DNA from: Callorhinchus milii
Taxonomy: Eukaryota
NCBI RefSeq assembly: GCF_018977255.1
Contig: NW_024704742.1
Coordinates: forward strand, 117,678,001 to 117,742,000
Direction: 5' to 3'
DNA length: 64,000 nucleotides
Shown piece by piece: positions 5,682-55,688 of the stretch. Both the position numbers and the translations under genes were made by a program. Positions within the stretch are counted from its first letter, which is position 1. Every line of letters begins with the position of its first letter. The notes under the pieces were generated by a model, which saw nothing but the letters and a program-made list of their open reading frames with translations, was not told where the DNA came from and made no database searches.

Positions 5682-8600
5682 GTGAGTTGCAGTTTACTGT
5701 AAATGGAACTATATTGAGAAAAAATATTTGGATTTGTGTGAAATTCAGAGCATAATTTGTACCTTCAACAGAATGTGTTGTGTGTCTACGATGTGGGCTT
5801 CATGTGCCTCCTTGCCCTAGATCTCCCTGCCGCCTTCACTGTTAACCATCCATTCTTCTCTGTTATCTTTCCTCACTCTGCTTTTCCACATCTGCATGCT
5901 GCTATTTACACATCTGCAGGCATACGGTTCTGGTTCACATGTATGGGGATATACTAGACCTCATTTTTGTATAGGATGTGTCTCTTCCATTCGCACATTA
6001 TTTAGGACCCAATGCCTTTATTTCTACATTATTTGAGACCTGTCTCCTTTACGTCTACCTTTCTTGGAACCTGTCTCAATTTTAAGGCAGTTGTGTTCAC
6101 ATTTTATGGACAGGGAAGATCTTTTGTGTATATATCCTGAAGCAAGTCAATTTAGTTTAACAGGGCACAGCTTTAGACAAACTGAGTGATATCTGGAGCC
6201 ATCCTGCGAGGGAAAGCATAGTATTGGCAAATATGTAGCCTGTACAACAACAACAACAAGATTGCATTTATAGAGCGCCTTTCACATCGGGAGGACATCC
6301 CAAGGCGCTGGACAGTTGGGTTGGGACCCGAGCAGGGGGGGAAATGGTCAGGATGAGGGGAGGGAAGGGAGGGAGCGAGGAGGGGGTAGAGAGTCAAGAG
6401 GGGAAGTGAAGGCACGGTTGAAGAGAAAGGTCTTGAGACCGGCCTTGAAGGAGGAAAGGGAGGAAGCAAGGTGAAGGCACTTGGGGATGGAGTTCCAGAG
6501 CCTAGGGGCTGAGAGGCTGAAGGCCTGGCCACCGATGGTAGGGTGGTTAAGGCGGGGGGTGTGGCGGAGACCGGAGCCAGAGGAACGGAGGGTACGGGCA
6601 GGTAAGTAGAGGGATAGTAGGTCAGAGAGGTAGGAGGGAGCAAGGTCATGAATGGCCTTGTAGGTGAGGATGAGGATCTTGAATTCGATCCTCTGGGGGA
6701 TGGGGACCCAGTGCAGGCGAGCGAGGGTGGGAGTGATGTGGTCCCGAAGCCTGGTGCGGGACAGTACACGAGCTGCAGAGTTCTGAATGACCTGCAGCTT
6801 GTGGAGGGAGGTGCCGGGAAGGCCGACGAGGAGAGAGTTCCCATAGTCCAGCCTTGAGATGATAAAGGCGTGGACCAGTGTTTCAGCAGCGTGAGGGGTG
6901 AGGTAGTGCCGTAGTCTGGCGATGTTCCGGAGGTAGTGGAAGGCGGTGCCAATTGTGGCGCGGATGTGGGGAAGAAAGGACAGCTCAGGGTCGAGCAGAA
7001 CACCGAGGTTCCTGATTGGCTTTTCCAAGTTTGATCTGCTCCAGACCAGTCCAAATCATCTACAAATCATCTTTAAATGGAGTCACGCTGAGAATGTTGT
7101 GTTGTTTTTCTTATCAGTGAAGTCATCTGAGAAACCTAGCGCTGAGTCTCAGGTAATGTAGAATGCAAGAGAAAATACACTGACGCTTCTTTCTTCTATG
7201 GACAAGGTCATTAGTTTGGACAACATGTACTCGTTCTCGGCTGTTACCTTTTTTTAAAAAAAATCTCAAGTTTCAAGGATTGCTGAGACTTGCCTCCTGC
7301 TTCACCATGGTGCTCCAGTGGCACCACGTGGCAAAAAATGAACGTGTGTTTTCAGTTGCATTAATGTTCTTTGGGACTTCGGACTGGTTTGAGAGCAGAT
7401 CCAGATCTACCCAAACGTAGAAAAGCAGAGCTGATGAGCTTGCACCCTAAATCTGGAGGGGGTGGATCCTGTAGCTCAGTGATTAGAGCACTTGCCTCGC
7501 AAGGGAGAGACCTGGGTTCAATTCCTGGGCAGGTTTCCTTACTCCACACACCTTTGTTTCCCTAGCAGTAAGTAGGAACCCGGTTGTTAGTCGATTGGCG
7601 GATTGCGTTTTGTGATTTGTGCACAGCAATGTGTCACAACCAATTTTATTTTAAAGAAGAGTTCAAAATTTCTGTGTGAGTAACTTCAAATTGATTGTAT
7701 TGCATATTGCATATTGTATTGCAACACAACTGGTTATTCCCTGTTCACATTGCACATAACATACTCAATACTGTAAAAATGGGGCATTAAATTATTATAC
7801 AGCTATAGATAAGTTTTTAAAATCTGTTCCCAAGGATACTCAGTACAGGCACAGTGGGTTTCTATGGTGCTTGCTAACAAATCATAAATTTCAAATCTTG
7901 CACTCATATAAAGTTTTTCAGTCAGACAGGAATGCTGAGTTGAACAAAGGATGACAGCACTGTGAGGTTATTCTCCTAATGACAATCCTTCAATTTGATA
8001 TAGCTCCTTATCACGTCATTGAAAAGTCTCAAAACACTTCACATAATATATTGTAAAGTGGATGTACAGGTGCTAATGGGAGCCATGCAGGAAAAAATTT
8101 AATGGATTTAAATTTAAGGCTGCAGTAATTGTGGCTCCTTTTTTATATTGAATAAGAATCTTACCAAACATTTTTGTGTTATTTTATATAATAATTAATG
8201 CTCACTTTATATTACTTTCTCCTGCACAGGTCAGCCATGGCCTCCCTGTATCCGAGTGACAGTGGTGCGGTCACCAGTACTAACACCTGGTACACTGTTC
8301 ATCATCACTGCAGTGACGTCAGCTACAATTGGAAGGTAAAGATTGAATAGTGTATATATTAATTTATTTTGCATTAGTTGTACAATAGTGTGGGGATTAG
8401 TCATTGATCTTGTGTAATTCCACAACAGTATAACTGTCACAACAGCCAATAGCCAATACCCATTACTACAACAACAACAACAACTTGGATTTATATAGCA
8501 CCCTCCACACCGTATGGCGTCTCAGAGCTAATCCGAATAGAGCTAATACTAATCCTTAATAAATAATCCTTATATTTAGTCTAGTACCTTCCCCTCAGGA

Positions 8601-14600: not shown

Positions 14601-17600
14601 CTGTAATGTACTGTATACTGTTTATAAGTGTAACTAACAAATCTGTTAATTTTGTAATTAGAACTTGATTATTATGCTTTATTTCACAGCTGTTAGGCAC
14701 TCTTAGAAGCTACCTGCATGAAGGATCCTATATAAATGCAAGTTGTTGTTGTACTAGCACTAACATAAAGATTGTGTCAAATGCTGACTTTAATTCACTC
14801 TATTAGTATAATACCTTTCATAATCAGTCATGATTTTCAATATTGTTTTTATTGTGTTTTCTGTGTAGAACAGTGCATATGAGGAATGCGAAGCGTTAAA
14901 GAACCCAGCATACAAAGACCGAGCTGGTAGACGCAGACATGTAGTTGGCAGCGATTGCATTTACCAAAAGGATGACGCCCCAGCTTCAGTCAATGTGTAA
15001 GTAATTATAGACGCAACGTCATGAATCGTTATCAACAATGGACCTCCCTGTCGGTCACCCTCCACTGCTCCTGATCCCAATCCCCTGCTTTGTCCAAATC
15101 CCTGACTGTCCAGCACCTTGGGAAGTCATCCTGAGGGGAAAGGCGCTATACAAATGTAATTTGTTGTTATTGTTACTCTAAATACATGTTAGACCTGGGA
15201 ATGCAGCAGTGATCCTATAAGTCTATGCCCAGCCCAGTTTTAATTTCCTTGTACCTAAGGCAGTCATCAAGCAAATAACTGTCATATGGAGCTCTTCTGA
15301 TGTTAGGAGTAGGTTTCAACTTCAAAACTTTGTGCAATAAATATTCATGGGCATTCATTCACCTTAGTGCTCAGTACATAGAAACAGGAGTTTCTGTGCC
15401 ATTCAGCCCCCCCGAACGTGTTCCGCCATTCTATAAGACCATGGCTGATCTGTATGTCAAGTCCAATTGCCCAGTAACTACCTGCCCTTGCCCTGTATCC
15501 CTTAATACCCTGACCTAACAAACATCTATTCACCTCAGTCTTGAAAATGTGAATGGATCCAGCATCTACAGCCTTTTGAGGGAAGAGTTCCAGATTTCCA
15601 CTACCCTTTGGGTGAAAAACTGCTTCCTAATTTCACTCCAAAATGGCCTCACTCCAATTTTGAGATGATGGCCCCTTGTTCTGGATTCCCCTACCAGAGG
15701 AAATAATTTCTCTGTAACTACCCTATCGAATCCCTTTATTATTTTAAAAAATCTCAATTAGATCACCCCTCCAACTTTTAAACTCAAGGGAATAGAGACC
15801 AAAATTTATGCAACCTGCCCTCATAATTTAACCCTTTAAGGCCTGGTATCATTCTGGTGAATCTGTGCTGCACTCCATCCAGAGTCAATATATCCTTCAT
15901 GAGGTTCAGTGCCCAAAACTGAACACAGTACTCCAGATATATATAAATGGAGTCCTGGAGCTCAGTGGTTAGAGCGCTCGCCTTGCGAGCGAGAGACCTG
16001 GGTTTGATTCCCGGCAGGACGAAACCTTGGGCAAGTTTCCTTACTTCACACGCCTGATAATAATCCCTCAAGAAATAAAATAAAAATTTGGTCACTCAAT
16101 CCACGACTGTTTGTGGGACACTGCAGTGCACAATTGGCCGCCGCGTTTCATCCACAAAATATAGTCAGTTCACTTTGCAGTATAAATGTACAATAACACT
16201 TTACAGCTTCTGTGAAGCGCCTTGAGATGTCTAGAAAATATGAAAGTGCTATATCAAAAGCAAAGATTATTATTATATAATATATATTATGGTAAAAAGC
16301 TGAGGCCCCAGTACAGACCCCTGAGGGACACCATTTGTCAAGCCCCGCCAATCAGAGAACGTTCCTTTTATCCGTACTTCTTTCCTGCCTCCCAATTTCT
16401 AAGCCACATCGAAAGGTTACCTTCGATTCCATGCACTTTTATGTTTGCTAATAACCTCATGTGCAGAACCTTATCGATTGCGATCTGGAAGTCCATGTAC
16501 ACAACATCCATAGGCTCTCTTATCCACCATGTCAGTGACCTCCAAAAAATGGAGTTAGATTTGTCAGACATGACCTGGGCCAATAGAAAAGTGCGGACAT
16601 TTTTGCCAAAAAAAATTGCGGTGCGCACTGCTACATTTTTTTCAATTTATTGATTAAAAACGAAATATAAGGAAATAATATAAAACTTGCAAAAAAATTA
16701 ATTGCTTCTTTAACAAAAATTGGGTGGCCACTTTTTTGGAAGGGTGGGGCCAGGCACCAGCGAGGCGACAGGAGCTCACCGTCTCCTGTCTCTCAGAGCC
16801 AGCACCTCACACAGACAGAGACCCAGAGAGACACACACTCGGACACAGTGAGAGACACACAAACTGAAAGACAGAGACACGCACATACTCAAAGACAGAG
16901 AGACATACACACACTCAGACACAGAGACACACACACACGCACTTTGCATTCCTCATATGCACTGTTCTACACAGAACTCGCAGACATACACACGTTCAAA
17001 GACAGAGAGAGAAACACACATACGTACACCCAGACACAGAGACATACACACAGAGACACTCAAACACACACACATATATAGGAGACGTAGACACACACTC
17101 AGACCCACAGAGACAATTACAACAGCGGGGCCTCCAAGTGTAGCCCATTTGCGCCACACTGCGCATGCGGGGCAGCTCTGCCCAGTGACATTAGGTAAAC
17201 AATGCGAGTGGCCCGCATGACCAGAAACTACATTTATGGTGGGTTTGTAGCGGACAGGGGTTGTTGGTGCGGAAAAAGTGCAGCAGCACTTTTAAATTGG
17301 CCCAGGACATGACCTAACCTTCACAAATCCATGCTGATTCTTTGATGAGCTCATACTTGTCCAAGCGCTCAGTTATTCTGTCCCTAATGAGAGATTCCAG
17401 TAACTTCCCCACAACTGAAGGTGACAGGTCTGTAGTTACCTGGTTTCTTCCTCCGAGTGACAATTCTCCAATCCAAGGGCACAATTCCCAAATATAGAGC
17501 TTTGGAAAATTATGATTAACGCATCGGCAATTTCCTCCCCTACTTCTTTTAATACCCATGGGTTGAATCTATCAGGCCATGGAGATTTGTCTATCTGTAG

Positions 17601-23600: not shown

Positions 23601-26600
23601 TAATGGAGTGGAGTTGAGGAGGCATAGATACACAAGTAAACAAAGACCAGATAGATAATCACCGCTTCTCTGTATTTTCTAAACACACACGATGGGAGTT
23701 CTTCGGTATATTTTGCTCTTCAAAAATGTACATATAGGGGTACACAATGAAGAAAACAGCAACAACAGTCTTGATTTCAGACTTGCCAATGGACACCTGC
23801 ACATCACATCTATATATGACTCAATTCGCATCACAGAGCAAAAAAAACTTGTGCAGCAGGTGACCATAAGGAAGCCAAACTTTTTTTTTAATGAGACGAA
23901 TTGTTAGGACACTTACAAATTATTCATTTTAGTCAAGTTAAAAACTAATAAAAAACAACTGGAACCATAAAAAGCCTCCTCAAAAAGTCAGCCAGTTCCT
24001 CTGATAATTATTTAGGAATTCCTTCTGGAAATACCAGAAGAGAACCACCTAATGGTTGGCTTTGACTGGGTCAACATTCTCATCAAAGAGCCCAACGTGA
24101 ACATAGGGTACTACAGAATCATTGCCCCTAGATTCATTCACAAAGCATTGTACCCTGGCTTCAGGGGAGAAGAGTTATAGGAGAAAAAAAAATTCTAGTA
24201 TTGTTGAGTTAACCAATATGTATCAGTTGTTAATGGTTTAGGACATCCTAAATTGTAAAAAGAGCTGCACAAAGAAACCTAGAATTACAATTATGTATAG
24301 AGGTTCCTCACCTTGCATATTTAAAGAACGCAATACAGGCATCGAGGCTTCTGGCATTTCAGAATGATCTCCATGGTTGGACAGTGGGGGCATCAGCTGC
24401 CTGCAAGATATCAAACAAGAACAGGAATAATGATAGCAACAATATACATTTTTAGCATATCATGGCTTTTCAGTAGTGTTAAATGAAGAAATATTGCGAG
24501 TAGCACACAAGAAATCAAGCTTACCCTAACATTTGTATAGCGCCTTCCACATTGGAAGGCGCTATACAATGCCCAAGGCATTGGATAGTCAGTGATTTGG
24601 ACCCGAGCATGGGTTGGAATCGGAGGGGGTGGTGGTGGGGGGTTTTGGGGACAGTGGAGGGCAGAGAGGGTAGGGGTAGGAGGGTGGCCGAAGGCGTGGG
24701 GGCAGAGGAGGGTCTCGAGACACTATCGTGCACAAAGTGCAATATACCCGAGCCTGGGGGAGGAGATAGAAGATGGGGTTGGAAAGGTGGGGTGAGATAA
24801 CGGAGGGATTTGAAAGTGAGGATGAGGATCTTGGAATTTATTGAAGAGAAAGTCAAGTGAGTGACGATCTTACATACAAATACAGGAGTCAAAAAACAAG
24901 GTTCTGCATCAACTCGTGAGGTTGAGAGAGCATGAGTGCGGGTCAACTGAGTCAGCTCCTGAGATAAGCAGATTCTCAGTCTTTCTGACATTTACATGAT
25001 TTGAGGACAGAGGCGGAGACATAGTTGGAGGTCATCCTGTATATGTGGAAGTGGAATGAATGCATGCAGATGATTCACCGAGTAGGAGAGGACAAATGAT
25101 CTGTCAAATAACTGACAACTTTGGATTAATAAAGTGTAACTGTAATTACCTTTCTCTTCCCCTTCCAAAGAAGGTAGGATCAGCAGCAATCTTCAACCCA
25201 GAGCCCATATCCTGACTGCTCCTAGTACCTAGATTAGTCAAGTGAAATGGTCCGTGCTATGAGTAGAAAAAAGGCCACAGAGATCAACAGGCGTGATTGC
25301 ATACAATTCATAAAACAAATTTATAACTTATGAACACCAATATCAATTTTATTCTTGTAATGTAAACAGGATCTTAAGACCTCTTTAGCATTAGATGGGA
25401 ATCAATATGGAAGGGACGAACGAGGTGGTACAATAGCTTAGCTCATTTAATTTCTCTTCTGGAACCTCGGTACAAATCCAGCTCAAATTGATGGGATAAA
25501 AGTCCCTTCATCTGATGAGTATACACAAAATGGGTTGAAGCAGTCTTAGACAGGTTGTTAACTTGGTATGGGCCACACAAAACAAATAAACTTTTTTGGT
25601 GCTTTGTTAATCTCATTTAGTCAGCTATGGCTGATTGGCAAATGAAAAAAATTGAACACGCAATTTGGGCCTATTGATAGTATGGAGTGGAGAGGGCATT
25701 TTCTAGCTAACTATTACACTTGCCCTGGGAGTGTTTCATAATGACAAGTTATCTGAAATAGGAAAGTGATGCATTTTCCAGCAGCCACATAAATCATCAA
25801 TAAAATGAAAGTCAAAAGGAAATTCTAGTATTTTGATCGTCACTATACGTTTCAAACATAAATATTAAAAGTGAAGCTGTAGGCAGAACAGCTGCAGATA
25901 CTTTTAAGGTTCTGGCAATTGGTTTCTTACACTCAACTATTACAAGGTCACTGTTGCAAAATAATAATAATTCCATAATGCAGAGGTTCTCAAACTCCTG
26001 GGGGGGTGGGGGGGGGACATGGTTGTGCGCTAAGGGAAGCGGCGGTTACGTGCTTCCCAACAGTCTCAGGTGTCACAAGGCTGCTCTGCTCCCACATCCC
26101 GGTGGGGCCTCTCCCTTGATGTTCAGGACCTGCAATGGCACTTCCCCCAGTGGCTACGCCCTGCGACAGTGGGCTTCCCACAACAGCCAAACCCTGCCTC
26201 TAACTTTCAACACCACAACCCCAAATTCTACTATTTTGTACAATGAGGAGACAGGCTCACTCCTCTCACTGATAAGGTAGATAAATTTCCGCTGACAAAT
26301 ATTTTACTGCCATGGTCTGTAGTTGTTTGGTGGTGTGATTCCCAGGAGTGTTGGTGGTTTTGTTCTGGCTGCTGCAATTTGTGCTCTTTTTGGGCAGAAT
26401 AATGGGATAGCACAGAGGGTGCTTTGTGAAGTAAATTAGTGCTTTTGACTCTCATACTCAGTGTAACTGTATTGATCTGAGCCCTTCTACTTTGTTGCTC
26501 GTACTCTTGCGTAGTATGAGATTTTCGGGTTTTTGTGTTGTCTTGGTGGAGGTGCAATTGCTTTTTTTTTTGGCTTAGAGAGGCTCACTGTGACAAAGTT

Positions 26601-29600
26601 TGAGAACCCCTGCCAAAATGTATCTGAATTTTAAACCAACCCATTACAACAAAACTTACCCAACTTGGTAAATTTGAACAATTTGCATGAACAAAATATT
26701 TCCTTAAAAATCAGATAGATAATATATTAGAACATGGGGTTTAAAAATAATTTCTGAAACGTCAAACTAAGTCACCAATTTTTTTAATGCTATATGAGAA
26801 CTTTAGGAACCCTACATTTAAAGTTACATTGATGGATTGGAGAGGGCTTAGATTGGCAAGGGTGATTCCAGGATTTAGGGCTCTTAAATTATGAGGACAG
26901 ATTTGAGAAGAGGTAGTGGGATGTTCGCCAACAAATATACAGGCATTACACTTCACTGTAGAAATCCTTGGAGGACATAAAGGACTATATAAAATGCAAA
27001 GGTATATAAATTTATATATTTTTTTAAATGTTTGGTTATTTCATTTGAACAGTGAGGGCAGATCTAGGGAACAGGAATATAAATTAGCTTGCCTCAAGTA
27101 AGGCAGGATTAGGAGAAATTTCCTCACCCTTCCTGTGTATAGTGATCATGTGAAATAGATTTCCACCTGAAACAGCTGGTGCTGTGAGTGAATTTATTTA
27201 CAGAATAGGATGAGTATCTGATTAGGAATGGGTTTAATGATCCTAGGGATAGGTACAGATAAAAATGATTGAATGCTACGTGGCTGAATACTGAGTCGAG
27301 TTGCCAATTGCCACAGATGAAAGTGTAGGATGTAAGGTTAACATTATGCAGTATTGTTCAATTTACCTGAGGGCAAGGAGATACATGCAGAAACTTTCCC
27401 CAGGAAATTAAATAGGTTTGGTAGAATCCACACAGAAGTAATTAAACACGGTCTGAGGAAAGAACAGGCTAGATGGGCTTAGGCTTTTCTTGTTCTAGGT
27501 TTTCTTATGAAAAAAATCCATGTAGCGCTGTGCATTTCAGCAGAATACAACGCTATTATAACACTTGCATATGAAAGAAAATCACCAATAAATACAGCAA
27601 ATATAATGAGCTGCCTCATCTTCCGAATCCTTCATTATGTTCATTTTGTCCAGTCAAAATTGTAGAAATTTTAGGTCTTCATTACGTATGTTTGTCACGG
27701 AGATTGCAGAATAAATCCATTTGTCAAATTATCAATTTAAACCACAATGTTACTAAAACTTCTTTCTTATATACCTATACATGTAGAAAGTTCTCATGGA
27801 ATAGAATCTACATCAAGATTGAGTAATAATAGCTATGTTTCAATGTCTAATTATAAAACAAGATTCCATTTGAAACAAAACACAAGATTTGAATGGGATA
27901 AAGTTCAATATTCATAAATTCATGATTTTCAAGTTCGTCGGTAAACTAACCTCTCTCAATATCAAGCACTATACATAATAAATTCTCAATAAGAGCAAGG
28001 CGGTTCTAACAGTCCTGAACCCAAACAAATCCTGAAAAGGATTATTTTCAAATCTGATACATTAATAAAACAAATTTTCCCTAACCACAACTTTACCTCA
28101 TGCCAGCAGTATTAAATTCTAGTCTGTCCTTTTTAAGAGTCATTATTTCAGTTAGTTTGGTAAATCATTCTATCAAAATCTAACCTGACACAGCTACACA
28201 TTTAACAATTTAACAACAGTCACACAACGTGCAAACACTATTGTTGGTTTTATTATCTATCAAAATTAAACAGCATACAATGCTTTTTTGAAGTATGCAA
28301 GCAGATGTATTTTAAAGATTCACATTACCGCAGCAACAGTTATAAAAATACTTTAGTTGAGCTTTTTTTAAATTTCTCAAAATAACTGCATCATCACCTC
28401 CATAAACCAAAACAATTTCTGGCACAACAAACTGCACCTATCAACATTCTACAAATGTTCTTATCGCTTCCAATAAAAAAGACCTTGATCCATTTGCATC
28501 ATGCACTGCCCATTTTGTCTGTCAAGCTCTCTCCTTTCTGAGTTTCACCTATCGAGTCCTAAATGCACTACATTTAGTTATATTGGTGTAATTCTAGTGG
28601 TAGCTCCGAGCACGCACATTCTGAGCATACCTACCTGGTATCCAAGAAGTTCTTCTGGTGTATTGGCCATTCTCTCTTCTCTGAAACGTCTCTTTTGTGG
28701 TTGAGAGGACGACACAGGAGGTGGCATTGAAACAGGGTTATTAGTACTTGTGGCCGGGATCTGATACTCTGAGCTGGACACAGAGACTGGCATGGGGGCA
28801 GAGTTTACATGTTGGACCTATGAATAACCAACAGAATACTTAATTCTAGATCTGTAGATGAAAGAGTAGTTCTAACAATCCACACTAAAAAGCTGTCGAA
28901 CTCCAGTTTCTTTCCATTTCTATTGTCCCATTTCCCCACTAACTTAAGGTGAAATATAATTCTTTGGAGTGACAAATATTTTTAAAAGTCTATAAACCTC
29001 AAAATTTACAGTATATTCTGTGAAGCGCTTTGAGACATCTCAACGACATGGTAAGGCCCTATATCAAATGTAAGGATTTTTATTAACTTAACTTAAGATC
29101 CTTTCAAAATAAACATGCTCCAGTTATTTTTACTTGTCTGTATTATTACATTAGTGACACCATACAAATATGTCACTAATACAATCATAGGGAGCATTAT
29201 AGAGAGCACTAATGTGATCATAGGGAGTAGGGAGAAAAAAATCAATCAGAGTTTCTGCCCGTGAGCAGGATGTGAGCATGTTTGGACATCTGGTGAGAAC
29301 TAATTGGGATCAACTGCTATCCCCAAGTTAAATTACTTCCCAACACCCACTGTCAAACCTCAGATAAACAGTTAGGCAAGTTATCATAGGGTGACTGGAG
29401 CTGTACCCAAGAATTAAGAAAAAGGAGCCAAATTCCACAGTAACAATAATCCGTACATTTATTATAGCACCTTTCATGTCAAGAGGACATCCCAAAGTGC
29501 TTCATGGGATTTAAATTACTGTAGAGACTGTTTTGCGGTAGCCAATTTGTGCACAGCATGAAGTGAATGACCAATTTTATTTAGGGGATGGTTGGCCAGG

Positions 29601-32600
29601 ACATAGGGAGAAATCCCCTTCTATTTTCAAATAATGTTATGGTACCATTAATGTATACCTGAACAGACAGATGCGGCCTCGGTTTACATCTCAAAGGACA
29701 GCACCTCCAACAATGCAGCACACCCCCAGCAGTGCACTGGAGTGTCATCTTAGATGAATTCCAAGTCCCAAAGTGGAGCTTGAACCCACAAACCTTGTGA
29801 CTCAGAGGTAAGAGTGATACCAACTGAGCCAGGCTGACACACAAACTGGGAGAGGGGAGATTGAGCCGGACTGACACACAGGCTGGGAGGAGGAGACTGG
29901 CCAGGCTGACACATAGGCTGGGAGAGGGGAGACGGAGCCGGGCTGACACACAGACTGGGTGGGGGTGGGGGATTGAGCCGGGCTGACACACAGGCTGGGA
30001 GGGAGGGGGAGATTGGGCCAGGCTGACACAGACTGGGATGGGAAACGATTAGGAATTATTTTAACATCTGACAATCTGCTGATGAAAATCCATTAAAACT
30101 TGAAAGGCCTCTGTACTCATTTAATATATATTTTTTAAAACAGCCATATTTTTCTATTCTTGTATGCATAGTTGAATTATTTCCTGCAAATTAATTTGAT
30201 TTTCAGATCACTAAGACTGTCTCAGTATACTAGTGTAGGCATTGAAGTTCAACAATACTTGTCTGCAGCAATAGTGTTTTTTCTACTGTATTGTAGAACT
30301 CACTATTATTGTAATATTTTAATATAGGAGGAGTTCACCAGTAAATGCAGCAGATGGAAAGCTGTATCACTTTCTCAATCCTCCACAATATTCTTATTGC
30401 ACAGTCAGAATTTGATTGTTGGGTAAACTGATTTCTTTCTATGAAAACCCTTCATTTTCTGCTAAGATAAATGCACAACTCACAGCTCCTACTCTTAACA
30501 GACTCTTAAAAAGAACACCGTCCGGCTATTCCATGAGAACATATGTATAAACATATGTATATATAAGAAGGAAGATCATCTCTTCTGTAAATATGTTGTA
30601 AGCAACAAATGGATTAGTCCAAATTTCTATTCACCTTTCAACGGTTTTGTTGTAATTAGAATGCAGATGGATTTCTGAGAGCATTTTGTGCCTAGAATCT
30701 AGAATTTTTAAAATCATTGTTAAGTCATTTTGTTTTTAAAGAAATAAGGTATTTATTTCACTCTGAAGTTATTAAATGGGCTATAGTTTGGTATCCCAAT
30801 TTCACAACCGGTTGTCTGGCCTCAGGACAATCAAGGTGTCGGAGACATCACCCTTCCCATCCTGTACCCTATATATAGAAGACAGCCCCACCTAACATGC
30901 ACCAGTTTGTCATCCTGTGCCCTATATACAGAAGACAGCCCCACCTAACATGCACCAGTTTGTTTTGACCCGTAGTTGTTAAAAGAAAAAAGCCATTAAG
31001 GCAATGAGAGAGTGATGTGGAGGATGCTTCAACTTGCAAAAATGAAGACAGCCCACAAGATAGGTTGTGTGTCTCTAGTCTTAATCTGGTAAATAAAGCA
31101 GAATACAATATTGATTGCCCAATGATGCACAGCTCATGGGGTAAAGACACTGCAGCACTTTAAGGTAACCAATGCATTATATATGGCAACCCAGATAGAA
31201 CAAGGTTCCTCCCAGCACACAAATGTCCTTCCTCCAATGGTATGTGAAGGATAATTCCTTATTCCGTTCAGATTAACAGCACCTCTAAAGGGTACCAAGC
31301 CAATTTAACTCAGTGTAAACTTCTCCAGTTTTTGAGCAACATTGAGAACCAATTTCTGATTAAAGAAATGTCACTAATATGCTTCAACTAATAGATATTG
31401 AACCTCAATGCTAATATCGTACAACCAAAATGTATGATACTGTTGAAGTGACTGGAGAAAAGATGTTTCAACACAATTTACCAGAGCAAGTCAGTGACTT
31501 AAAAATTAACAACCATTGTTAATTTTTACAGAATATTAAATTAAGTGGTTATATTTCAACCAAGCAACTAATTCTTCATGAATGAGCACAGGACTCATGG
31601 AGTCCTGTCGCTCAGTGGTTAGAGCATTCGCCTTGCAAGCGAGACACCTGGGTTCAATTCCAGGCAGGGCGAAACCTTGGGCAAGTTTCCTTACTCCACA
31701 CGCCTAATAATAATCCTTCCAAAAAATAATAATAAATTGGTCATTTTCAATCCACGATTGTTTGTGGGACACTGCTGTGCGCAATTGGCTGCGCGTTTCG
31801 CCCCCAAAGATACAGCCAATTCACTTTGCAGCATATTCTGTGAAGCGCTTTGAGACGTCTAGAAGACGTGAAAAGCGCTTTATCAAATGCAAGGATTATT
31901 ATTATTAGAAGCCACAAAGTATTTGCAGACAACCAAATCCAACACACTCAAATCTGATCCCTTTTCTGTTCTCACAAGGCTTCTGCAAAAATTACAGTGA
32001 AAAATCATTGAACAGATATCAGGAATTCCTAGCCATTTTCCTTCCCAACTAATGTAACTAATTTAGGATAGAACAGGAATGAAATCCAGGACATGGGCCA
32101 TATACAACACATTGTGTATTTACTAATTACGCCATTGGGTTGCAGATTTATAATTTATGCCAATTTGTTTTAACCTTCTTCTCTGAGTTAAATCCAATAA
32201 TTAGCCCAATCCTGCATGCCTTCCAAATTTAAGTTAAATCCAATGACAAACATAGTTTTGAAGCTGAACAAAACTGAAACATAGACTTGTTTTACTTTTC
32301 CGTTTTTCTCTCTAGCCATGTACCATAATTACACAGATGTAATGTGCATCAAACTTTCAAAAAAAATGTAAAACTTTTATATTTCAAAGGGTTAAGAAAG
32401 AAGACTAACAAATCCATCTATGCTTGAGAATAGTTTCAGTAGATGAATTTTTAACCTTCAAGGGATGTTAAAATTGAGTAGATTATGGGTGTAATTCCCA
32501 CATTTTGTGTGCAAACGTTGCATCTACATACCACTCCCAGAAGATTACACTAACATTAGTTGTATTTAACATTAGCATTTTGTTTATCTTAGTAAAAAGT

Positions 32601-35600
32601 GCCAAAAATTACATTAAGTGGCTGGAATGCTATGTATTTAAGCAGAAAACTGCTCATTGAACTCTTGAAAAGCAAATAGTTGTAGCAAACGAAGCCAACA
32701 TGGAGGTTTACAAATGCTAACTGTAAACAGAATCTTTATTTCTGCTATGGATCAAGCAGACTCCAGAACCCACAATCAGCGCCTTGTATTGCAGCCAAGA
32801 GTATCTAAATCAGCTTTTCGGAAAGGAAGAAGAACTTTGCTCAGTTACTTAACTTGTGCACCCTGCCAATGTTTCCAGTGACAGAAACTGTTGACACATA
32901 CCTAACATGAATTGTTTCGGAAAACAGAAAAATGTCTTTCCTTTATCCCAACTTTTAAGTGCATTGAGCAAAATCATTTACTCTTCCATGCATATGGCCG
33001 CTGTGTATCATTACATAAAGAATGTTTAGGACAATAAAGGCATATGGATTGTACCAGGATCCATAAAATTACAATATATATTTAAATAATTAATATTGTC
33101 AATTTAGTCACTTTTATATCATTCACAAAATCTTAAAACAGAATAACCCAGGTTGCTGCTTTGAACTTTTGTATTTCTACACCATTTTCTTCCCAATGTT
33201 TCCTTACATCCAGGCAAATAGATTAGCGAGCCATAGAACATTTCCAAAGGCACAATAAATGCTAATCATTTTTTTTATTCTTCACCAGACTTGAGTGAAA
33301 GAGGACAGAATCCCTATTGAGTCTGATTTTTGCCCTATTATTAACTGCATGGTGACCAAAAAGTTGGGATATCTACCCTATTATCTAAAAAATTACCATG
33401 TCTTTAAGACTTATTAGATATCGTTATGGTATCACAACTTTTTGATCACCCTGTAGAAAAATTCAACCCATAGGTACATATATACCTTTTTAAATATATT
33501 CAATAAAATTCAGGAAATTTGATTACTAAAGACAGTCAAACTTGGATCTTATAACCAAAGTCTTCGTACTCTGAAATACTCAATAGTTTTGGTTGTGCAA
33601 AACTCCCTCTCCCCCATGTGTAGACGATGCATTTGATGAAAATCTATTGAAGGTTGTTTGTTACCGATCTCACTAAAAGTCAAAACTCTGGAGATAACTA
33701 TTAAATTCCACTGAATGCTTCCATAAAGTTTCACTCAATTTGCAACAGGGAAACCATTATTATTAACTTTAATCAGATTCAAATAGGTACTCTTGAGTAG
33801 TTAAGGCACAAGCTTAAGTACAGATGAATCACTTTTGGGAGGGAGGGAGGGAAACTTGTTGTTTTACAAATATTACCATTTAGCAGTAAACCACAGAATC
33901 TTACATTTAAATACAAGGATTGCGCATGGTATAAAAATCATCAATGGTGTCCATCGCTTTAATGCTCTTACCTGCTGTGAAGATGCTCCAGTTTGTTGCA
34001 TTGGTTGTGGCGCATAACAAGGTCCTGGCATTGGTTGTGGCACAGAAAAGTTGTTCTGGGGTACTGAGTGCATCATCCCCGACACAACTTGACTTTGTGA
34101 CATCTCTGTAGGCAATCCAGTACTGTATGGGGTTTGAAGAGGCTGCCTTAACTGCTGTGTAGAATACTGTACATTTGTGTTTGCATACGTGTATGGGACA
34201 GATGATTGAGGCTGAATGGGATATGGCTGTGACGTCATCACAGGAGGTAGAACAGAGACAGGATTATGGGCAGGAGCCATAGCTGGAGATGGTGTCACCA
34301 TTGGATAGACTGAAAAATATCAAAAATTCCAGCATCAAATATCTGAAAATTTGTTGGTGAAAATCAACACAACCAAAAAGACACAAGTTCACAACCCGAA
34401 AAGACACAGCGTCCTCCCAAGTGAAAGGCGCAATACAAATGTAATTTTGTAATGTATTTAACATAAGCGATAATTACTTACTACAAAAACTACCATAACT
34501 TGATGCTTAAGCTTCACTTAATACAGATTCAAAACAGTAACTATATACCAGTAGTGAAGCTCAACAATATCTGTCCAGTGTTTATTTCTGTTGCGATACA
34601 CACTGATACTTTAACATTTTTAATATGAAGTTTTACCACCAAAGGCAGCATTCATAAAAATAATGCATCAATTTCTCAATTCACTCTATCCAGTCAGTGA
34701 CTCAGAGTTTATTCAATGAGTTGTTGAGCCACAGACAGGTTTCAGGTTTGATTCATGATCTGATCTCAACTGGGTAGTGCTTAATGGCGCTACAGTTGAT
34801 CTTAGCACCAAGATTGAGGAGAAGAAAACTTCTACTGGAAATGGACACGTAGACAAAGAAGACTGAAGAAAACATTAAGCTTTGCTCACAATCAGTTTAT
34901 ATAAATATAATGGCTACTTGGTAAGCACCCGAAAACCACACATTCAAATGCATTCAGCAGGCACAATGAAGGGAGAAAATATACAAGTGAAAAAATAGTG
35001 CCTGATGGTACTTTTTGCTATGACAAATACAAAAAATACTAAAAAAAATTGCATCATCATGCCTTTACGACACCCATGTTAAATCAGCACATGAACTGGT
35101 AATATGATAGACTAGAGACTGGAAATCAAAGGTCAAAGCAGCTTTAGCAATCAACCAAAGTAGACCGATAGCAAGAGGGGCAAAAGATGTAAACCAAGAA
35201 GGCATATATCTACTTAACTGCCTACTTAAATACTAAATTTGTCGTTATCCAAAATAATAAGACCTGGCTGGTGACCATAAAATTTAACCGTGTTGAATCT
35301 GCTCTCTGATAATAATTTGACATCAGATTTTTCAGTGAAGTCAACATAATCAGTACCTCAGGACTCAAATTTGAAATGTTCAACCTACAACTATACTGGT
35401 GACTTCAACATCCAGGCATGAAAACATGCATTGGCTTTAAACATTTACTCCTAATTTCCACCCTGTGTAAGAATACCTGATGGTGGTCCCATTCCTATGG
35501 TCATCTGGCTTTGGTATCTAGAATACTCTGCATGTACCTTCGGGGGAAAAAAAGCAAGAATTTTAAAAAGATATTTAAAATGTCGAGTATTTTGAACTAT

Positions 35601-38600
35601 TAATCCATATATAACCAATATTTGCATTCTGGTGTTGCAACATACTAGAATGGCCAAATAATGTTAACTTCCAAGATTATACACCTATCATCAACTCAAA
35701 ACACCATTTTACTATTAACATATTGTAACATTTCAATTAAGTTCCCTAAATATGTAAGGGATAATTAATGCATATTAATTTTTGATAAACCATTTAGGTA
35801 AATAGTAAGAACATATTCTTAAACAGCATTATAATATCAAATTTCTTTAATGATCATTAACAGATCCAAAAGATTCCCATTTACTGCAATGTGCTTATGC
35901 CCAATACAAAATCAAATCCAACTCAATCTAGAGTCATTTAAGCACTTGGCCTTTGGCACATCAGGGAACACTAACTATAAAATCGAAGAACCCTCTACTC
36001 ACCGTCTGAAGCAGGTTTTCGCACAATGTTTTTGCCCCTGCTAAACCTTCTGGCTTAGGATGGCTGTAAAAACAAGACATCAAAGGTACTTTAATAAACA
36101 GTAATACATATGATGAAGGACAATGAATTATTTAAATTTCTTTCTAATTTAATTGTTGAATAGTCACCTATTTTTCTGAACAAAAAACAGATACCGATTG
36201 GAAACGAGCTTAATTATGGCATAACTATTTAGAATAGGAATTGTAGCTCCTCTGAAGATTTGATGGATCAATTCAACAAACTCATGTAAGATTGAATTGG
36301 ATAGAATATAAAGGGCCAGGTTTGATCGCTAGTGTGTGCTGATGTAGCTGATCATAGCCAGAGCTCTTGTGGGGTCCCCATTGTCAGCAGTTTTCCCTCG
36401 ACAGGGGTGCATGGTAGGGAAGGCTTGAATGCTTTTCAGTAACCACACCTTTGTGGGCTGTTTCATTACTCCCATGTTCCAATAGCCTACCAACATCTAT
36501 CATCTTCATTCACTTAAGGAATGAAACTTGAACAAGGTAATGACGCCCATGGAACTGTACAGCAGAATGGGACACTGCTGGAGCCCAAAAGAATATTGAA
36601 ATGAAGAAAGGAAGCAACAAACATGGCGAGCAGACAACAGAAAAGCAGGGACGGTTTTAATTTTTTTCCACGGACCAATAATATTTGTGATAAATTGGAC
36701 AGCTGTTTTCAAAATTCACTACAACCTTCCCCAACCACTGCACTAGACTTTGTAGAAGAAGTATAACTTACGTGATATAAATATACATCGGTTCAAATGC
36801 TTCTCTTCCAGATGTTGGCTCAATGAAGCCTGATCCTTTGCCCCTGAGATGAACTTTGGCCCCTGTTTCATTCTGAATATGGTGCAGATAGGAACCTCCT
36901 GGGCCTTCCACTTTTTCTTTTGCATTGAAAGTAGGAGCATGCTCCAGACCGACAAAGATTTTGTCCTGAACAAAATGCATCTGTAAAAAAAGAGTTGAAT
37001 TTAAATAAAAAATCCAATATCAGCATTAAATGCAACACTATTCATATTCCTCTCCATCCTCATATCTGAATGTTTTCAGTACATTTGCAGGAATGCATCA
37101 AACTTTTTTTGGTAGAAATACTATTCATTTAAAGTTAAAAGTAATATTATTGCTTTATGCAATATACACAATGTTATGTTTTATATTATCCCAAATGAAT
37201 GCATTTTGACAAGGTTATTCAAAAAGGCCACAGGATTATTAATGTGTAAAACTAACTAGTGAATTTGGTATTAAAATTAAATAATTTGAATAAAACATAT
37301 ACAATATCAGGAATTTGCACTTTGTTGTCTTTCAATCAGGAATTCTATACAATGAGAAATCACAAATTGAACTATTATACACCAGGTTTAAGCCTTAAGT
37401 ATTTTTAACTGTATAATAGTTTTTTTTATTCCCATCACTTTTTTTAAAAAAAATGCAATGTTACAAACCACTTATAAGCCCGTCACAATAAATCCAGTTT
37501 AGCCAATATCACCTACCCCTGGCTGTAACTGAGGCAAGGAATTGTATGGAGAATGGTTATGTGAAGTCATGGAATTGCTCCTTGCAGTAGACGTTACTAC
37601 AAGTGGAAGAGGTTGTTTGATGGCTTCTTTTGCTAATGCCTCACCAATAATTTCCTTGATCCTGTTTACGGCTCCTAAAAGGAGGAAAGATATTCAATAT
37701 CTTACCTCACACATTCGTCCCAGTGGAAATTGTACACAGCTGATTAATTTCAAAAGAATCAAATATGAAATATTTCCAAACTATTTCTAACATAATTGAA
37801 GATATTAATGCAGCGTTTGTACTGCATTATTTAACAGCAAATCACCACAAACATGCAGTGTAAATTCAAGTTGAGGCAGTGCAGATTGCATTGGAGCCTC
37901 ACTCCCAACACCACTTCAGAGGTGTTTTCACCTGTATGATTTACGCCTGCAGAGTATAGAAATGCACTGAATTTCAATCACATTGGGCTCAGTCACCATA
38001 ATCTATTGAAAACTCAATGGACAGCGCAGGAACTTTCAACAGATTTTTCAAAAAAGCCAAGTGTTAACTGTTTTTTTACATTTAAAACTAACACCAGATT
38101 TTGATGTTCTGTACATGCTCTTAGACTGTGCATGTGCTGAAGACCAAAATCAGGCAAACAATGTTGAGCATTTACTCTACCAATGTACAAACAAATCACG
38201 GCAATTACTTTACATCTGCTAAGCTTTCATTATACTGGTGCAGAAATGCAAAATATTTGCAAGTCTCAAGAACCTATAGAAAAGTGCGATCCCTGATTTT
38301 TTTTATTGTAAATTATACAGCATTTGTTTAGGTAAAGGTGTAAACGATTCCCAACAGCACCTTTCCTGGCCATTGAGTGTTTGTATGCCGTATGAAGTTT
38401 CCACATCTAGAATAATACCCTTCAAATTACGAAACTTTACTTCTCAAATTCAAGTTAGAAAATGCCTGGTGGCCCCCATTCCCCCAAGTATTTCATGTTG
38501 ATATCCAGAAAGTTAATTATAAAAGTACACAGTTTGGGACCAGTTTCCATTCAAATATCCAGAATTATTTTATTCCAGAATAACCATGATAGGCATAAAA

Positions 38601-44600: not shown

Positions 44601-46072
44601 GTGACACCAACAATTTACAAGAGGCAAACATTGAACAAGAAGGTGCAACAAAGTAATAGCTAAAACACTGAATTAACAAAGTTAAACTCTGATGGAGGGA
44701 CATAGCTGAATAGTTAACCTATCTTTCACTTTTATAATAATTCTAGCATTTGATATAACACCTTATTACGTCTTCGAGACATCTCAAAGCGCTTCATAGA
44801 ATATACTGTAAAATGAATTGACCTGCATATTTTGTGGGAGAAATGCAGCAGTCAATTGCACACAGCAGTGTCCCACAAACAGAGAGATCAATTTTTTTTA
44901 AAAAAAGGAATTATCACTGCCGGAAAAGCAATCTGCCAATCATTAATAGCCGGTTTCCTACTTACGGCTAGGTAAACAGAGGTGTGTGGAATAAGGAAAC
45001 TTGCCCAACGTTTTGCCCTGCCAGGAATCAAACCCAGGTCTCTCACTTAATAATAATAATCCTTGCATTTGATATAGCGCTTTTCACGTCGGGAGGACGT
45101 CCCAAAGCGCTTCACAGAACACACTGTAAAGTGAATTGACTGTATATTTGTGGGTGAACGCGGCAGCCAATTGCGCACAGCAATGTCCCACAAACAGTCG
45201 TAGATTGAGAATGACCAATTTATTATTGTTTTTGGTTTTGGAGGGATTATTATTAGGCTCTGTGTGGAGTAAGGAAACTTGCCCAAGGTTTCGCCCTGAC
45301 CTGCCTGGGATTGAACTCAGGTCTCTCGCTTGCAAAGCAAGTGCTCTAACCACTGAGCTACACCTTTTATAATGGAACGTTTCAAAAACTACTGAAACTA
45401 TAAATCTATAGCAAAGTGTTAGTTTAAAACGGAAATAGTGCTACAGAATCACAACGTCATCCCATGGCGTACTCGAACATGGGTCCGAGGATATAAAACA
45501 GTGAAGAAAATCTAACAAAATGTACCATATTAACAATCAAGTGTAAGCAGTAATACTGAGTAGCCACTGTTCAACATTCGGACAGCAACTTATTAATATA
45601 TGAACTCGACGATAGCAGTAATAATCCTTGCATTTGATATAGCACCTTATCGTGTGGGAGGAGACGTCTCAAATCGCTTCACAGATTATACTGTCAAGTT
45701 GTTTGACTGCAGTTTGTGGGCGAAGCGCAAAACGAATCCCCCACCCCCAACCCCCAAAAAAAAAAAAAAAATCAAAATCGATCACCACGATCAGGTAAGC
45801 ATTTCAATACACGATGGTGAAACACGAGAATATTTCCGCTCGATGACATTTTATAGCGCGGCTGAGCTGCACGTCGGAAGCTGCAAAGGGGATTGACAAC
45901 CCACACGGCCGTTTGTCCTCGCATGAAACCGGACCGAAACGCATTCGAGATCAACATAGCAACAGCGAGAGCTGCGAACAGCAAAATCTTCTGGAAGGTG
46001 GTGGAGGAGCGAGCGACAAAAACACAAAACAAACTCGGGCGCGAAGTTGTTCAGATTGAACGCGAGTACAAC

Positions 46073-46103
<31 letters not shown>

Positions 46104-46761
46104 CTCTCTCTCGTTCTCTGCGACATTTTGAATCCCTCCTCCTCCCTTGAGTTACAGTTGGCAAAGTGAACATGGCTGTGAGAGAAAACGAGGTCACGCA
46201 CCGAGGGAGAGACGACGCCGCGCTCCCTCGCCGCCCCTGGTGTATCCCCCCCCCCGGCCGGAGCGGGCCGGGCCGGGCCGGAGCCGGGCCGGGGGCCCGC
46301 GGTGTACGTGTGTGTGACTGGCGAGAGGTCGCGTTGCTCGGAGCTGACGGCGTTTCCCCCTCAGGCCGTCAGGACACGGCCGAGGCTGCAAATCTCATCT
46401 CCCCGCCGCTGCCCGGCCCTGGGCCGCGACAACTCGTTCGCGCCTTTTACGCTCCCAACAGGCGCCGCCTGGGGCCTCCGCGCCGGCGCGGGCCTGGCCT
46501 AGGCCAAACCTCGACCTGACTCGATCCCCGGGCCGGGCCGAGCCGGGCATGGCCACCGCATCGACGCCGCCTTCTTCCAAATAAGCGTCTCTGCCGAGGA
46601 GGCGACCACACGCCGGTCCCCGGCCCACAGCGTGTCCGCCCACCCCACCACCGCGCCCCGGCGGCCCCGCTCGATCAATCGCCTTCGGTACAAAGCGCGG
46701 AGGAGGCCGTGTTCAGTTGAGGCACTTACCCCGCAGACTGCGGCGAACCCGCTGCCGACAT
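20319..46761 (-). CDS. KHDC4: KHDC4/BLOM7/KIAA0907-like KH-domain splicing factor, complete, 14 exons; complement(join(20319..20620,24312..24400,25150..25256,28635..28817,33972..34309,35477..35537,36003..36063,36772..36980,37517..37674,38862..38914,39608..39687,40659..40787,42573..42840,46730..46761)), 689 aa; possibly a paralogue rather than the orthologue of human KHDC4
   Basis: 2070 nt open frame over GT-AG introns. Family motifs: [141 protein letters not shown]. Confidence 0.95.
24312..24400 (-). CDS. KHDC4: KHDC4-like exon 13 ([10 protein letters not shown]...SLNMQ)
   Basis: cttgcag| ... AAG|gtgagg. Confidence 0.9.
24520..25090 (-). mobile_element. Degenerate L2 fragments
   Basis: [13 protein letters not shown] motif and an L2-type tail. 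Confidence 0.7.
25150..25256 (-). CDS. KHDC4: KHDC4-like exon 12 ([15 protein letters not shown]...GRGRER)
   Basis: ctcatag| ... AG|gtaatt; HGPxHxTNLG family motif. Confidence 0.92.
25981..26612. mobile_element. hAT-Charlie-type MITE
   Basis: TIR CAGAGGTTCTCAAACT / AGTTTGAGAACCCCTG; TSD CCATAATG / CCAAAATG. Confidence 0.85.
26800..27510 (+). mobile_element. Old CR1-like 3' fragment
   Basis: Degenerate 'attccagga..ttaaattatgaggacaga' and 'agatctaggg..ataaatta' segments with a CR1-like tail. Confidence 0.5.
28635..28817 (-). CDS. KHDC4: KHDC4-like exon 11 (VQHVNSAP...[10 protein letters not shown]...LLGYQ)
   Basis: ttcatag| ... CAG|gtaggt. Confidence 0.92.
29450..29840 (-). mobile_element. 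Deu-domain SINE
   Basis: Colinear with 8595-8950. Confidence 0.8.
29825..30043. repeat. Minisatellite, about 6 units of ~36-40 bp
   Basis: Unit TGAGCCRGGCTGACACACAGRCTGGGAGAGGGGAGAY. Confidence 0.9.
30257..30386 (-). ncRNA. SNORA47: Intronic box H/ACA snoRNA, SNORA47-like
   Basis: Sense to the host. Hairpin 1 is GGAGGA-[UUGAGAA]-AGUGAUACAGC/GCUGCAUUUACU-[GGUGAAC]-UCCUCC. H box AUAUUA (30325-30320) lies 14 nt from the pocket top. Hairpin 2 has AAUAGUG/CACUAUU and UUCUAC/GUAGAA stems. ACA (30262-30260) is followed by 3 nt; total 130 nt. The family name rests on recalled similarity to human SNORA47. Confidence 0.85.
30858..30963. repeat. 53-bp tandem duplication
   Basis: Two copies with 2 mismatches. 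Confidence 0.95.
31599..31907 (+). mobile_element. Full-length tRNA-SINE
   Basis: Same family as 112-428. Confidence 0.92.
33972..34309 (-). CDS. KHDC4: KHDC4-like exon 10, P/Q/S/Y-rich low-complexity region
   Basis: ttttcag| ... CAG|gtaaga; open in the required phase. Confidence 0.88.
35477..35537 (-). CDS. KHDC4: KHDC4-like exon 9 ([20 protein letters not shown])
   Basis: cccgaag| ... CAG|gtattc; an alternative same-phase donor 15 nt further (exon end 35462) is possible. Confidence 0.85.
36003..36063 (-). CDS. KHDC4: KHDC4-like exon 8 ([20 protein letters not shown])
   Basis: tttacag| ... ACG|gtgagt. Confidence 0.95.
36772..36980 (-). CDS. KHDC4: KHDC4-like exon 7 ([14 protein letters not shown]...[26 protein letters not shown]...PMYIYI)
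   Basis: tttacag| ... AC|gtaagt; second KH domain. Confidence 0.96.
37517..37674 (-). CDS. KHDC4: KHDC4-like exon 6 ([10 protein letters not shown]...QLQPG)
   Basis: cttttag| ... GGG|gtaggt. Confidence 0.93.
38862..38914 (-). CDS. KHDC4: KHDC4-like exon 5 ([17 protein letters not shown])
   Basis: tttttag| ... A|gtaaga. Confidence 0.95.
39608..39687 (-). CDS. KHDC4: KHDC4-like exon 4 ([27 protein letters not shown])
   Basis: tctgtag| ... GG|gtaagg. Confidence 0.95.
40659..40787 (-). CDS. KHDC4: KHDC4-like exon 3 (SMMPSK...[29 protein letters not shown])
   Basis: cttccag| ... GAG|gtaaac. Confidence 0.95.
41075..41297 (-). mobile_element. tRNA-SINE 3' part (young subfamily)
   Basis: Near-identical to 45048-45250. 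Confidence 0.9.
42573..42840 (-). CDS. KHDC4: KHDC4-like exon 2 (RRSKWD...[19 protein letters not shown]...ENR)
   Basis: tttgcag| ... CGA|gtaagt. Confidence 0.95.
43205..44060 (+). mobile_element. L2 3' fragment
   Basis: Colinear with 870-1590 and the L2 tail. Confidence 0.85.
44734..45362 (-). mobile_element. Two adjacent tRNA-SINE copies (44734-45047 and 45048-45362)
   Basis: Two (ATT)n tails and cores; the second copy has the tRNA head. Confidence 0.88.
46430..46635. repeat. Copy 1 of a ~200-bp direct duplication (copy 2 at 47226-47426)
   Basis: Near-identical sequence caactcgtt...cccacagcgtgt at both sites. Confidence 0.95.
46730..46761 (-). CDS. KHDC4: KHDC4-like exon 1 CDS ([11 protein letters not shown])
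   Basis: ATG inside the CpG island; donor GG|gtaagt; phase 2 matches exon 2. Confidence 0.85.
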
Positions 46762-55305: not shown

Positions 55306-55688
55306 ATCCTGTAGCTCAGTGGTTAGAGCACTTGCCTCGCAAGCAAGAGGACCTGGGTTTGATTCCTGGTCAGGGCAAAACATTAGGCAAGTTTCCTTAC
55401 TGCATACACCTCTGTTTAACGAACAGTAAGTAGGAACCCGGTTGTCAATCAATTGGCGAATCGCTTTTCTGGGGATAATAATCCCTTCAAAAAAAGTTTA
55501 AAAAAGGAATAATTTGGTCACTCAATCCATGACTGTTTGTGAAACACTGCTGTGTTCAATTGGCTGCGCATTTCACCCACAAAATATGCAGTCAATTCAC
55601 TTTACAGTATATTTTGTGAAGCACTTTGAGACGTCTCAAAGACATGATTAGGTGCTATATCTAATGCAAGGATTATTAATATTATTAA
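55306..55688 (+). mobile_element. Full-length tRNA-SINE, long variant
   Basis: Head, extra cagtaagtaggaacccggttg segment, core and tail. Confidence 0.9.

Follow-up and report, generated by a model that had tools for sequence, protein, structure and literature searches.

A predicted SNORA47 orthologue within intron 10 of KHDC4 in the chimaera Callorhinchus milii

The analysis of a 64,000-nucleotide (nt) stretch of the Callorhinchus milii genome (assembly GCF_018977255.1, NW_024704742.1:117,678,001-117,742,000, forward strand), hereafter the window, points to a small nucleolar RNA (snoRNA) of the box H/ACA class encoded on the minus strand at 30257..30386, within intron 10 of the gene KHDC4. 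This element, referred to below as copy 1, is very likely the single-copy orthologue of SNORA47 (HBI-115), that is, an intronic H/ACA RNA predicted to guide the pseudouridylation of uridine 1398 (U1398) of the 28S ribosomal RNA (rRNA). All coordinates are window positions, and position p of the minus-strand RNA corresponds to window position 30387-p.

Family assignment and predicted structure

The comparison of the whole window with Rfam (cmscan, gathering thresholds) matched the interval 30386..30257 of the minus strand to SNORA47 (RF01234, a model of 138 positions with a gathering score of 45 bits) at 52.6 bits and an E-value of 4.4e-8. When the 991-Mb assembly was searched with RF01234, copy 1 was the sole match (E 1.6e-7), and a DNA search of the same assembly with the 130 nt themselves found one place only at E-values up to 10. 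A permissive Rfam scan of the 1.7 kb around copy 1 gave SCARNA15 as the runner-up, with 20.9 bits against a cut-off of 65, and SNORA47 was the top and only significant family on this stretch. A preliminary description of the locus had proposed a SNORA47-like RNA and had named an Infernal comparison with Rfam as the check; the score above the gathering value bears out that identity. To judge from its sequence, copy 1 adds an unremarkable member to a known H/ACA family, and an Rfam-based annotation pipeline would very probably label the locus SNORA47 already. Among the listed titles of the literature searched, none points to a description of SNORA47 in a cartilaginous fish or to a link between SNORA47 and KHDC4, and a report on elephant-shark complementary DNAs only gives a count of '11 snoRNA' (PMC3466250). 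The predicted features of copy 1 are as follows.

30257..30386, minus strand: box H/ACA snoRNA, predicted SNORA47 orthologue (copy 1), predicted length 130 nt (RF01234 and fold)
30327..30384, minus strand: 5' hairpin with pseudouridylation pocket, RNA 3-60 (RF01234 alignment and fold)
30372..30378, minus strand: 5' strand of the pocket, UUGAGAA, 7 base pairs (bp) with rRNA UUCUCAA 3' of the target (target scan)
30337..30339, minus strand: 3' strand of the pocket, GGU, 3 bp with rRNA ACC 5' of the target (target scan)
30320..30325, minus strand: H box AUAUUA, RNA 62-67, fitting ANANNA (sequence; aligned with the consensus hinge by cmscan)
30266..30311, minus strand: 3' hairpin, AU-rich, RNA 76-121, 16 bp with a 2x4-nt internal loop (fold)
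30260..30262, minus strand: ACA box, RNA 125-127, 3 nt past the 3' hairpin and followed by AGU (sequence)

Folding of copy 1 with ViennaRNA gave a minimum free energy structure identical to the centroid at -32.2 kcal/mol (z -2.65), a stability equalled by 2 of 200 dinucleotide shuffles. In this fold, the 5' hairpin consists of a lower stem, GGAGGA/UCCUCC (RNA 3-8 and 55-60), and an upper stem (RNA 16-47), between which the two strands of the pocket, UUGAGAA (RNA 9-15) and GGUGAAC (RNA 48-54), are left open. The H box of this RNA class follows the motif ANANNA, and a distance of 14-16 nt normally separates the top of a guide pocket from the H or ACA box. Here, the H box begins one base 3' of the 5' hairpin, and exactly 14 nt (RNA 48-61) separate U47, the end of the upper stem, from A62, the beginning of the box. 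The cmscan alignment shows that, of the 16 pairs that the model places in the 5' hairpin, 15 are standard and one is broken (A.C), and that in comparison with the consensus two pairs have changed on both sides (G-C to A-U and G-C to U-A) and one on a single side, so the structure of the 5' hairpin has been kept despite sequence change.

The 3' half of the molecule presents a different picture, since the upper stem of its hairpin ends 18 nt from the ACA box, outside the range of 14-16 nt, and since this distance together with the small internal loop leaves the hairpin without a usable guide pocket. The rRNA scan described below, repeated for the 3' hairpin with its 8-bp stem opened, likewise found no site at 3+3 bp or better. 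We infer that this hairpin would form the non-guiding, protein-binding half of the particle. The ACA at 30262-30260 aligns with the ACA of a diverged second copy in the next intron (copy 2, treated below), and the tail around it, GCAGACAAGU, is similar to the consensus tail of RF01234, the only part of the 3' half for which such similarity was found. The order hairpin, H box, hairpin, ACA over 130 nt, the pocket-to-H spacing of 14 nt and an AU-rich, pocketless and presumably structural 3' hairpin had all been claimed in the preliminary description, and each of them agrees with the fold, the boxes, the measured distances and the empty rRNA scan reported here.

Predicted target in the 28S rRNA

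The rRNAs used to examine the pocket came from the same genome. The 18S and 5.8S rRNAs were taken from contig C708, and the complete 28S rRNA (3975 nt; RF02543, 2807.7 bits, model positions 1-3401) from contig C328, because the ribosomal DNA (rDNA) of C708 is broken after about position 2350 of the large-subunit (LSU) model. Across the 1200 uridines of the three rRNAs, we counted contiguous pairs, with G-U allowed, on both sides of an unpaired U-N. The best of these uridines was 28S U1398, with 7+3 bp in the context UCUCAACC-UA-UUCUCAAA, whereas the runner-up reached 8 bp and U1398 alone attained at least 9 bp. The total of 10 bp lies above the 8-bp minimum given for H/ACA guiding (PMC6049503). 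The pairing of UUGAGAA and GGU with a conserved LSU segment around an unpaired UA, which had been put forward before any comparison with the species' own 28S rRNA was made, is thus found in that rRNA as ACC-UA-UUCUCAA.

When the consensus pocket strands of RF01234 were run through the same scan, they led to the same U1398 with 6+4 bp. Relative to this consensus, the 3' strand of copy 1 (GGUG for GGUU) loses one pair and the 5' strand (UUGAGAA for CUGAGAA) gains one, and through these offsetting changes the guide total stays at 10 bp. A pocket described as '6+4 nt (5')' is also tabulated for the chicken orthologue GGgACA33/HBI-115 (PMC2653536), and the target assigned to human SNORA47/HBI-115 in three sources is 28S-1766, or 1779 in the newer numbering (PMC9941101, PMC6466398, PMC3542256), which coincides with the human site (28S U1766) named in the preliminary description. 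One of these sources places the 28S position guided by SNORA47 at an intersubunit bridge (PMC9941101). Compared with the human/vertebrate SNORA47 represented by RF01234, copy 1 shares the rRNA uridine of the family consensus, the approximate size (130 nt vs a 138-position model) and the restriction of guiding to the 5' hairpin, and it differs in the partition of the guide pairs and in a 3' hairpin that is shorter and unalignable to the model. Chicken GGgACA33, a 138-nt RNA with one 28S site served by the 5' hairpin through 10 bp, and with no yeast counterpart listed in its table (PMC2653536), resembles copy 1 in reaching the same total through the same hairpin, although the partition (6+4 vs 7+3) and the host differ; this comparison concerns tabulated properties, not sequences.

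Of the 22 rDNA pattern matches of the assembly, 19 have an unaltered target sequence. In three rDNA-like copies on contig C29 (524245-556863, minus strand), a C has been replaced by G within the ACC with which the 3' pocket strand pairs; these copies are located on a large contig and may represent degenerate rDNA. The yeast positions 25S-986/990 (guide snR49) had also been considered as the equivalent site and were rejected as wrong, the tables of two sources listing no yeast guide for this site (PMC2653536, PMC3542256).

If the established biology of H/ACA RNAs applies, copy 1 would be transcribed within intron 10 of KHDC4, and dyskerin, NOP10, NHP2 and GAR1 would assemble co-transcriptionally on the H and ACA boxes of the RNA while it is still part of the nascent intron. 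Splicing would then release the intron, and exonucleases would trim it to an RNA of roughly 130 nt ending 3 nt after the ACA. In the resulting particle, the 5' pocket would pair with ACC-[UA]-UUCUCAA (3+7 bp), bringing U1398 to a distance of 14 nt from the H box for isomerisation to pseudouridine by dyskerin, and the 3' hairpin, devoid of a guide, would serve as the second protein-binding half. By the predicted orthology, the guide of SNORA47, and presumably also the pseudouridine at the equivalent of 28S-1779(1766), is as old as the jawed-vertebrate ancestor or older.

Alternative readings of copy 1

A number of points weigh against copy 1 being a working SNORA47 with this target. Among the sequencing runs on record as RNA, none is listed with the copy 1 stretch, and the snoRNA comparison within cartilaginous fishes covers C. 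milii alone. The 3' strand of the pocket forms 3 bp only, and at least 10 bp somewhere in the rRNAs were attained by 407 of 2000 shuffled guides. The correspondence of U1398 to human 28S-1779(1766) is itself a probable one, drawn from the shared guide, the chicken table and the human assignments. Finally, cmscan aligned only 30385..30283, leaving out 51 model positions, the 3' hairpin among them, through a local end, and it set the ACA of the family at 30288-30286, inside the loop of the 3' hairpin. Given that RF01234 leaves the 3' hairpin unaligned, the 3' half of the prediction derives from the fold and from the alignment with copy 2.

The main rival to a working SNORA47 is a silent relic, that is, a decaying copy or pseudogene no longer processed to a stable working RNA, which we regard as unlikely. 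Such a relic would be in keeping with the lack of any RNA-type run listed with the stretch, with a 3' hairpin diverged past the reach of the RF01234 alignment, with a 3' pocket strand one pair short of the consensus, and with the decaying paralogue in the next intron, from which it follows that copies do decay at this locus. However, the lost pair is offset by the gained one, and the canonical H and ACA boxes, the 14-nt spacing and the 15 of 16 intact pairs with compensatory changes speak against a relic. The element is also intronic and in the sense of its host, with flanks that bear neither an A-rich tail nor any other sign of retroposition. Moreover, as copy 1 is the sole SNORA47 match in the genome, its silence would leave a conserved modification without any other guide of the family.

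It is considerably less probable that copy 1 functions as an H/ACA RNA mainly elsewhere than at U1398, whether on a different RNA target or as an orphan or regulatory RNA. The ease with which shuffled guides attain 10 bp lends some room to this reading, as do the departure of the pocket from the consensus at two positions and the scope of the target scan, which covered the rRNAs. For this reason, we give weight to the complementarity only on account of its position at the known site of the family: the best rRNA site of copy 1 is the single site of the consensus guide and the one reported in chicken and human, and the distance from the pocket to the H box is canonical.

The span aligned by cmscan could be taken at face value, in which case the RNA would end at 30283 as a single-hairpin molecule of about 103 nt with its ACA at 30288-30286, an option that we hold to be hardly credible. 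That ACA is reached only by way of the local end, and it sits in the loop of the 16-bp hairpin, where no hairpin is possible between the H box and the ACA; the placement was rejected because it leaves no second hairpin, and vertebrate H/ACA RNAs are described as consisting of two hairpins (PMC6049503). In contrast, the ACA at 30262-30260 follows a hairpin by 3 nt, has a counterpart in copy 2 and is embedded in the consensus-like tail. The boundaries 30257..30386, which had been proposed before the covariance model was applied, were therefore preferred over 30385..30283. A chance resemblance within AU-rich intron sequence, for which one could invoke the G+C content of 35% in the copy 1 region and the repeats in which the intron is rich, is practically negligible in view of exactly one match genome-wide (E 1.6e-7) and of the concordance of guide, boxes, spacing and sense orientation.

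Host gene, second copy and intron context

The translation of the exon-bearing open reading frame (ORF) at 36768-37019 of the minus strand matches 'KH homology domain-containing protein 4' of Callorhinchus milii at 100% identity and contains a KH domain of the KHDC4/BBP type. By tblastn, the 689-residue protein (P0003) was distributed over 13 exons between 42839 and 20322, the first of which begins right after a splice acceptor, and KHDC4 comprises 14 coding exons once an 11-codon exon at 46761 is counted. The relevant parts of the gene are the following.

46730..46761 (3' limit approximate), minus strand: KHDC4 coding exon 1, start codon at 46761, residues 1-11, followed by GTAAGT
33972..34313, minus strand: KHDC4 coding exon 10, about residues 350-465 of P0003 (tblastn, splice sites)
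28818..33971, minus strand: KHDC4 intron 10, GT..AG, 5154 nt, host of copy 1 (tblastn, splice sites)
28635..28817, minus strand: KHDC4 coding exon 11 (tblastn, splice sites)
27518..27635, minus strand: copy 2, a diverged and probably decaying paralogue similar to SNORA47, in intron 11 of KHDC4 (RF01234, 29.5 bits, below the gathering score)

The designation of the intron as number 10 is fixed by the first coding exon at 46761. Copy 1 is in the sense orientation of KHDC4, starting 3585 nt past the 5' splice site and stopping 1439 nt short of the 3' one. A single KHDC4 locus was found in the genome, with 10 of 10 exon matches in this place. The protein identity, the tblastn exons, the splice sites and the position of exon 1 together uphold the earlier assignment of the element to the host-sense strand of intron 10 of a KHDC4-like gene. 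Aside from this, elasmobranchs have two KHDC4 genes, one named 'KHDC4-like', whose proteins are 90-97% identical to the exon in the window, and one named 'KHDC4', at about 80%. Next to the single locus of this genome, this suggests either the loss of a paralogue on the way to the chimaera or its gain among elasmobranchs.

Permissive scanning of the gene (20000-43500) with RF01234 revealed a second match in intron 11 (28634..25257), at 27634..27531 and likewise on the minus strand. It scores 29.5 bits (E 0.011 over 23.5 kb, 2.9e-4 over 601 nt) and, extended to its own ACA, occupies 27635..27518 as copy 2. The two copies can be aligned over their whole length with MAFFT, their 5' hairpins and hinges being identical at 47 of 68 aligned bases, and each preserves the 15 pairs of the 5' hairpin, both bases being exchanged in two of these pairs. 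In the complete two-copy alignment, 96.4% of the cells are paired and 3 pairs have changed on both sides, a result that is weak given that it involves two sequences and a structure taken from copy 1, and that 62 of 500 shuffles do equally well. Since blastn of the copies with 600-nt flanks found neither the snoRNA pair nor a common flank, their paralogy is supported by the covariance model and the MAFFT alignment. Copy 2 falls short of the SNORA47 gathering score, has the hinge AUAUGC rather than an ANANNA box, and pairs at U1398 through 4+3 bp only, fewer than the 8 bp required at the least for guiding; its 3' hairpin has been shortened by deletions, and its fold (z -1.19) is no better than those of shuffles. 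On these sequence features, copy 2 is probably an old duplicate that moved to the adjoining intron and is decaying, rather than a working member of the family. A possible site for its pocket, with 3+7 bp, was noted at 28S U3040.

The host of SNORA47 differs among the vertebrates compared. While copy 1 lies in KHDC4, human SNORA47 is tabulated under ZBED3 (PMC6466398) and described as a neighbour of that gene (PMC8836216), and the host given for chicken GGgACA33 is intron 1 of the messenger RNA CR523168, not KIAA0907/KHDC4 (PMC2653536). In turn, human KHDC4 hosts two other H/ACA RNAs, SNORA42/SNORA80E and SCARNA4 (PMC6466398), and SNORA42 is stated to lie in 'intron 10 of KIAA0907' (PMC4966663). 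The human and chimaera genes are thus alike in carrying two H/ACA genes in one host, with the same-numbered intron for SNORA42 as for copy 1, a likeness of intron 10 that is one of number only. They differ in that SNORA42/SNORA80E and SCARNA4 belong to other families with other targets (18S-109/572 and U2-41, respectively) than SNORA47. The models of SNORA42 and SCARNA4 had no match in the KHDC4 gene of the window at E-values up to 1. Elsewhere in this genome, the SNORA42 model matched 7 places on contig C21, 4 of them above the cut-off, and the SCARNA4 model gave a sub-threshold match only, on contig C24. The SNORA42 matches of C21 (L007-L013) lie at 4956854-4971550 on the minus strand and at 5130072-5130211 on the plus strand, six of them within 15 kb on one strand, a clustered arrangement resembling the layout of a multi-snoRNA host gene. 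Both lineages therefore house snoRNAs in KHDC4, but different ones: SNORA42 and SCARNA4 in human and SNORA47 here.

Host switching and intronic duplicates are well-known traits of vertebrate snoRNAs. A more ambitious reading would make introns 10-11 of KHDC4 an H/ACA 'slot' of long standing, in which local duplication and guide re-targeting keep replacing the cargo, or, in a milder form, would make KHDC4 the ancestral jawed-vertebrate host of SNORA47, followed by a later move to the ZBED3 region; we consider it improbable, to a degree close to that of the silent relic and slightly beyond it. Its cargo would comprise SNORA47 in intron 10 and the drifting duplicate in intron 11 of the chimaera, as well as SNORA42/SNORA80E in the same-numbered intron and SCARNA4 elsewhere in the gene of human, and, if it were true, the snoRNAs of human KHDC4 would have arisen on the spot from duplicates resembling SNORA47 instead of being insertions. 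More modestly, copy 1 adds one H/ACA gene with a predicted guide, a target in its own rRNA and a host intron to the annotation of cartilaginous fishes, which serve as the outgroup for bony vertebrates. As a small case of snoRNA evolution, it combines a compensated guide (7+3 vs 6+4), a decaying neighbour copy and a host unlike those of human and chicken, features that are mildly notable and would not surprise a specialist.

At the level of sequencing reads, the four runs holding the copy 1 stretch (X1-X4, from one study) were considered as RNA and rejected, since their even depth of about 7-13 over exons and intron and the contigs that bridge exon-intron borders identify them as whole-genome DNA. 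In these four DNA runs, the depth over copy 1 (about 8-12) is that of a single-copy sequence. No variants were seen within 30257-30386, the nearest being at 30214 and 30242, an observation that is uninformative and demonstrates no constraint because the 15 variant places in 6001 nt predict about 0.3 for the 130 nt. Of 117 stretches of metagenome contigs retrieved with an 18-letter pattern from the beginning of copy 1, 0 had a CCUCC-type stem and an ANANNA box further on; these matches are attributable to chance, so they yield no covariation set.

The window further contains sequences similar to transfer RNAs (tRNAs) for alanine, detected with Rfam and ARAGORN.

114-185, plus strand: tRNA-Ala-like sequence
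7466-7538, plus strand: tRNA-Ala-like sequence
15951-16022, plus strand: tRNA-Ala-like sequence
31601-31672, plus strand: tRNA-Ala-like sequence, within intron 10
45305-45360, minus strand: tRNA-Ala-like sequence
55306-55377, plus strand: tRNA-Ala-like sequence

The sequence in intron 10 is embedded in an interval (31415-32017) whose word depth in the four DNA runs is 10^5 to 10^6. These sequences look like the heads of tRNA-derived short interspersed elements (SINEs) rather than tRNA genes, and Callorhinchus SINEs are the subject of a paper (PMC5499810). Intron 10 also harbors a tandem array at 29823-30030 (29405-30007 by depth), with periods of 40 and 72 nt in about 5.5 and 2.7 copies, which begins about 230 nt downstream of copy 1, belongs by word depth to repeats numbering thousands genome-wide, and gives rise to long, spurious proline-/serine-rich ORFs on the minus strand. 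In the same intron, a 53-nt unit is present twice at 30858-30963 with 96% identity.

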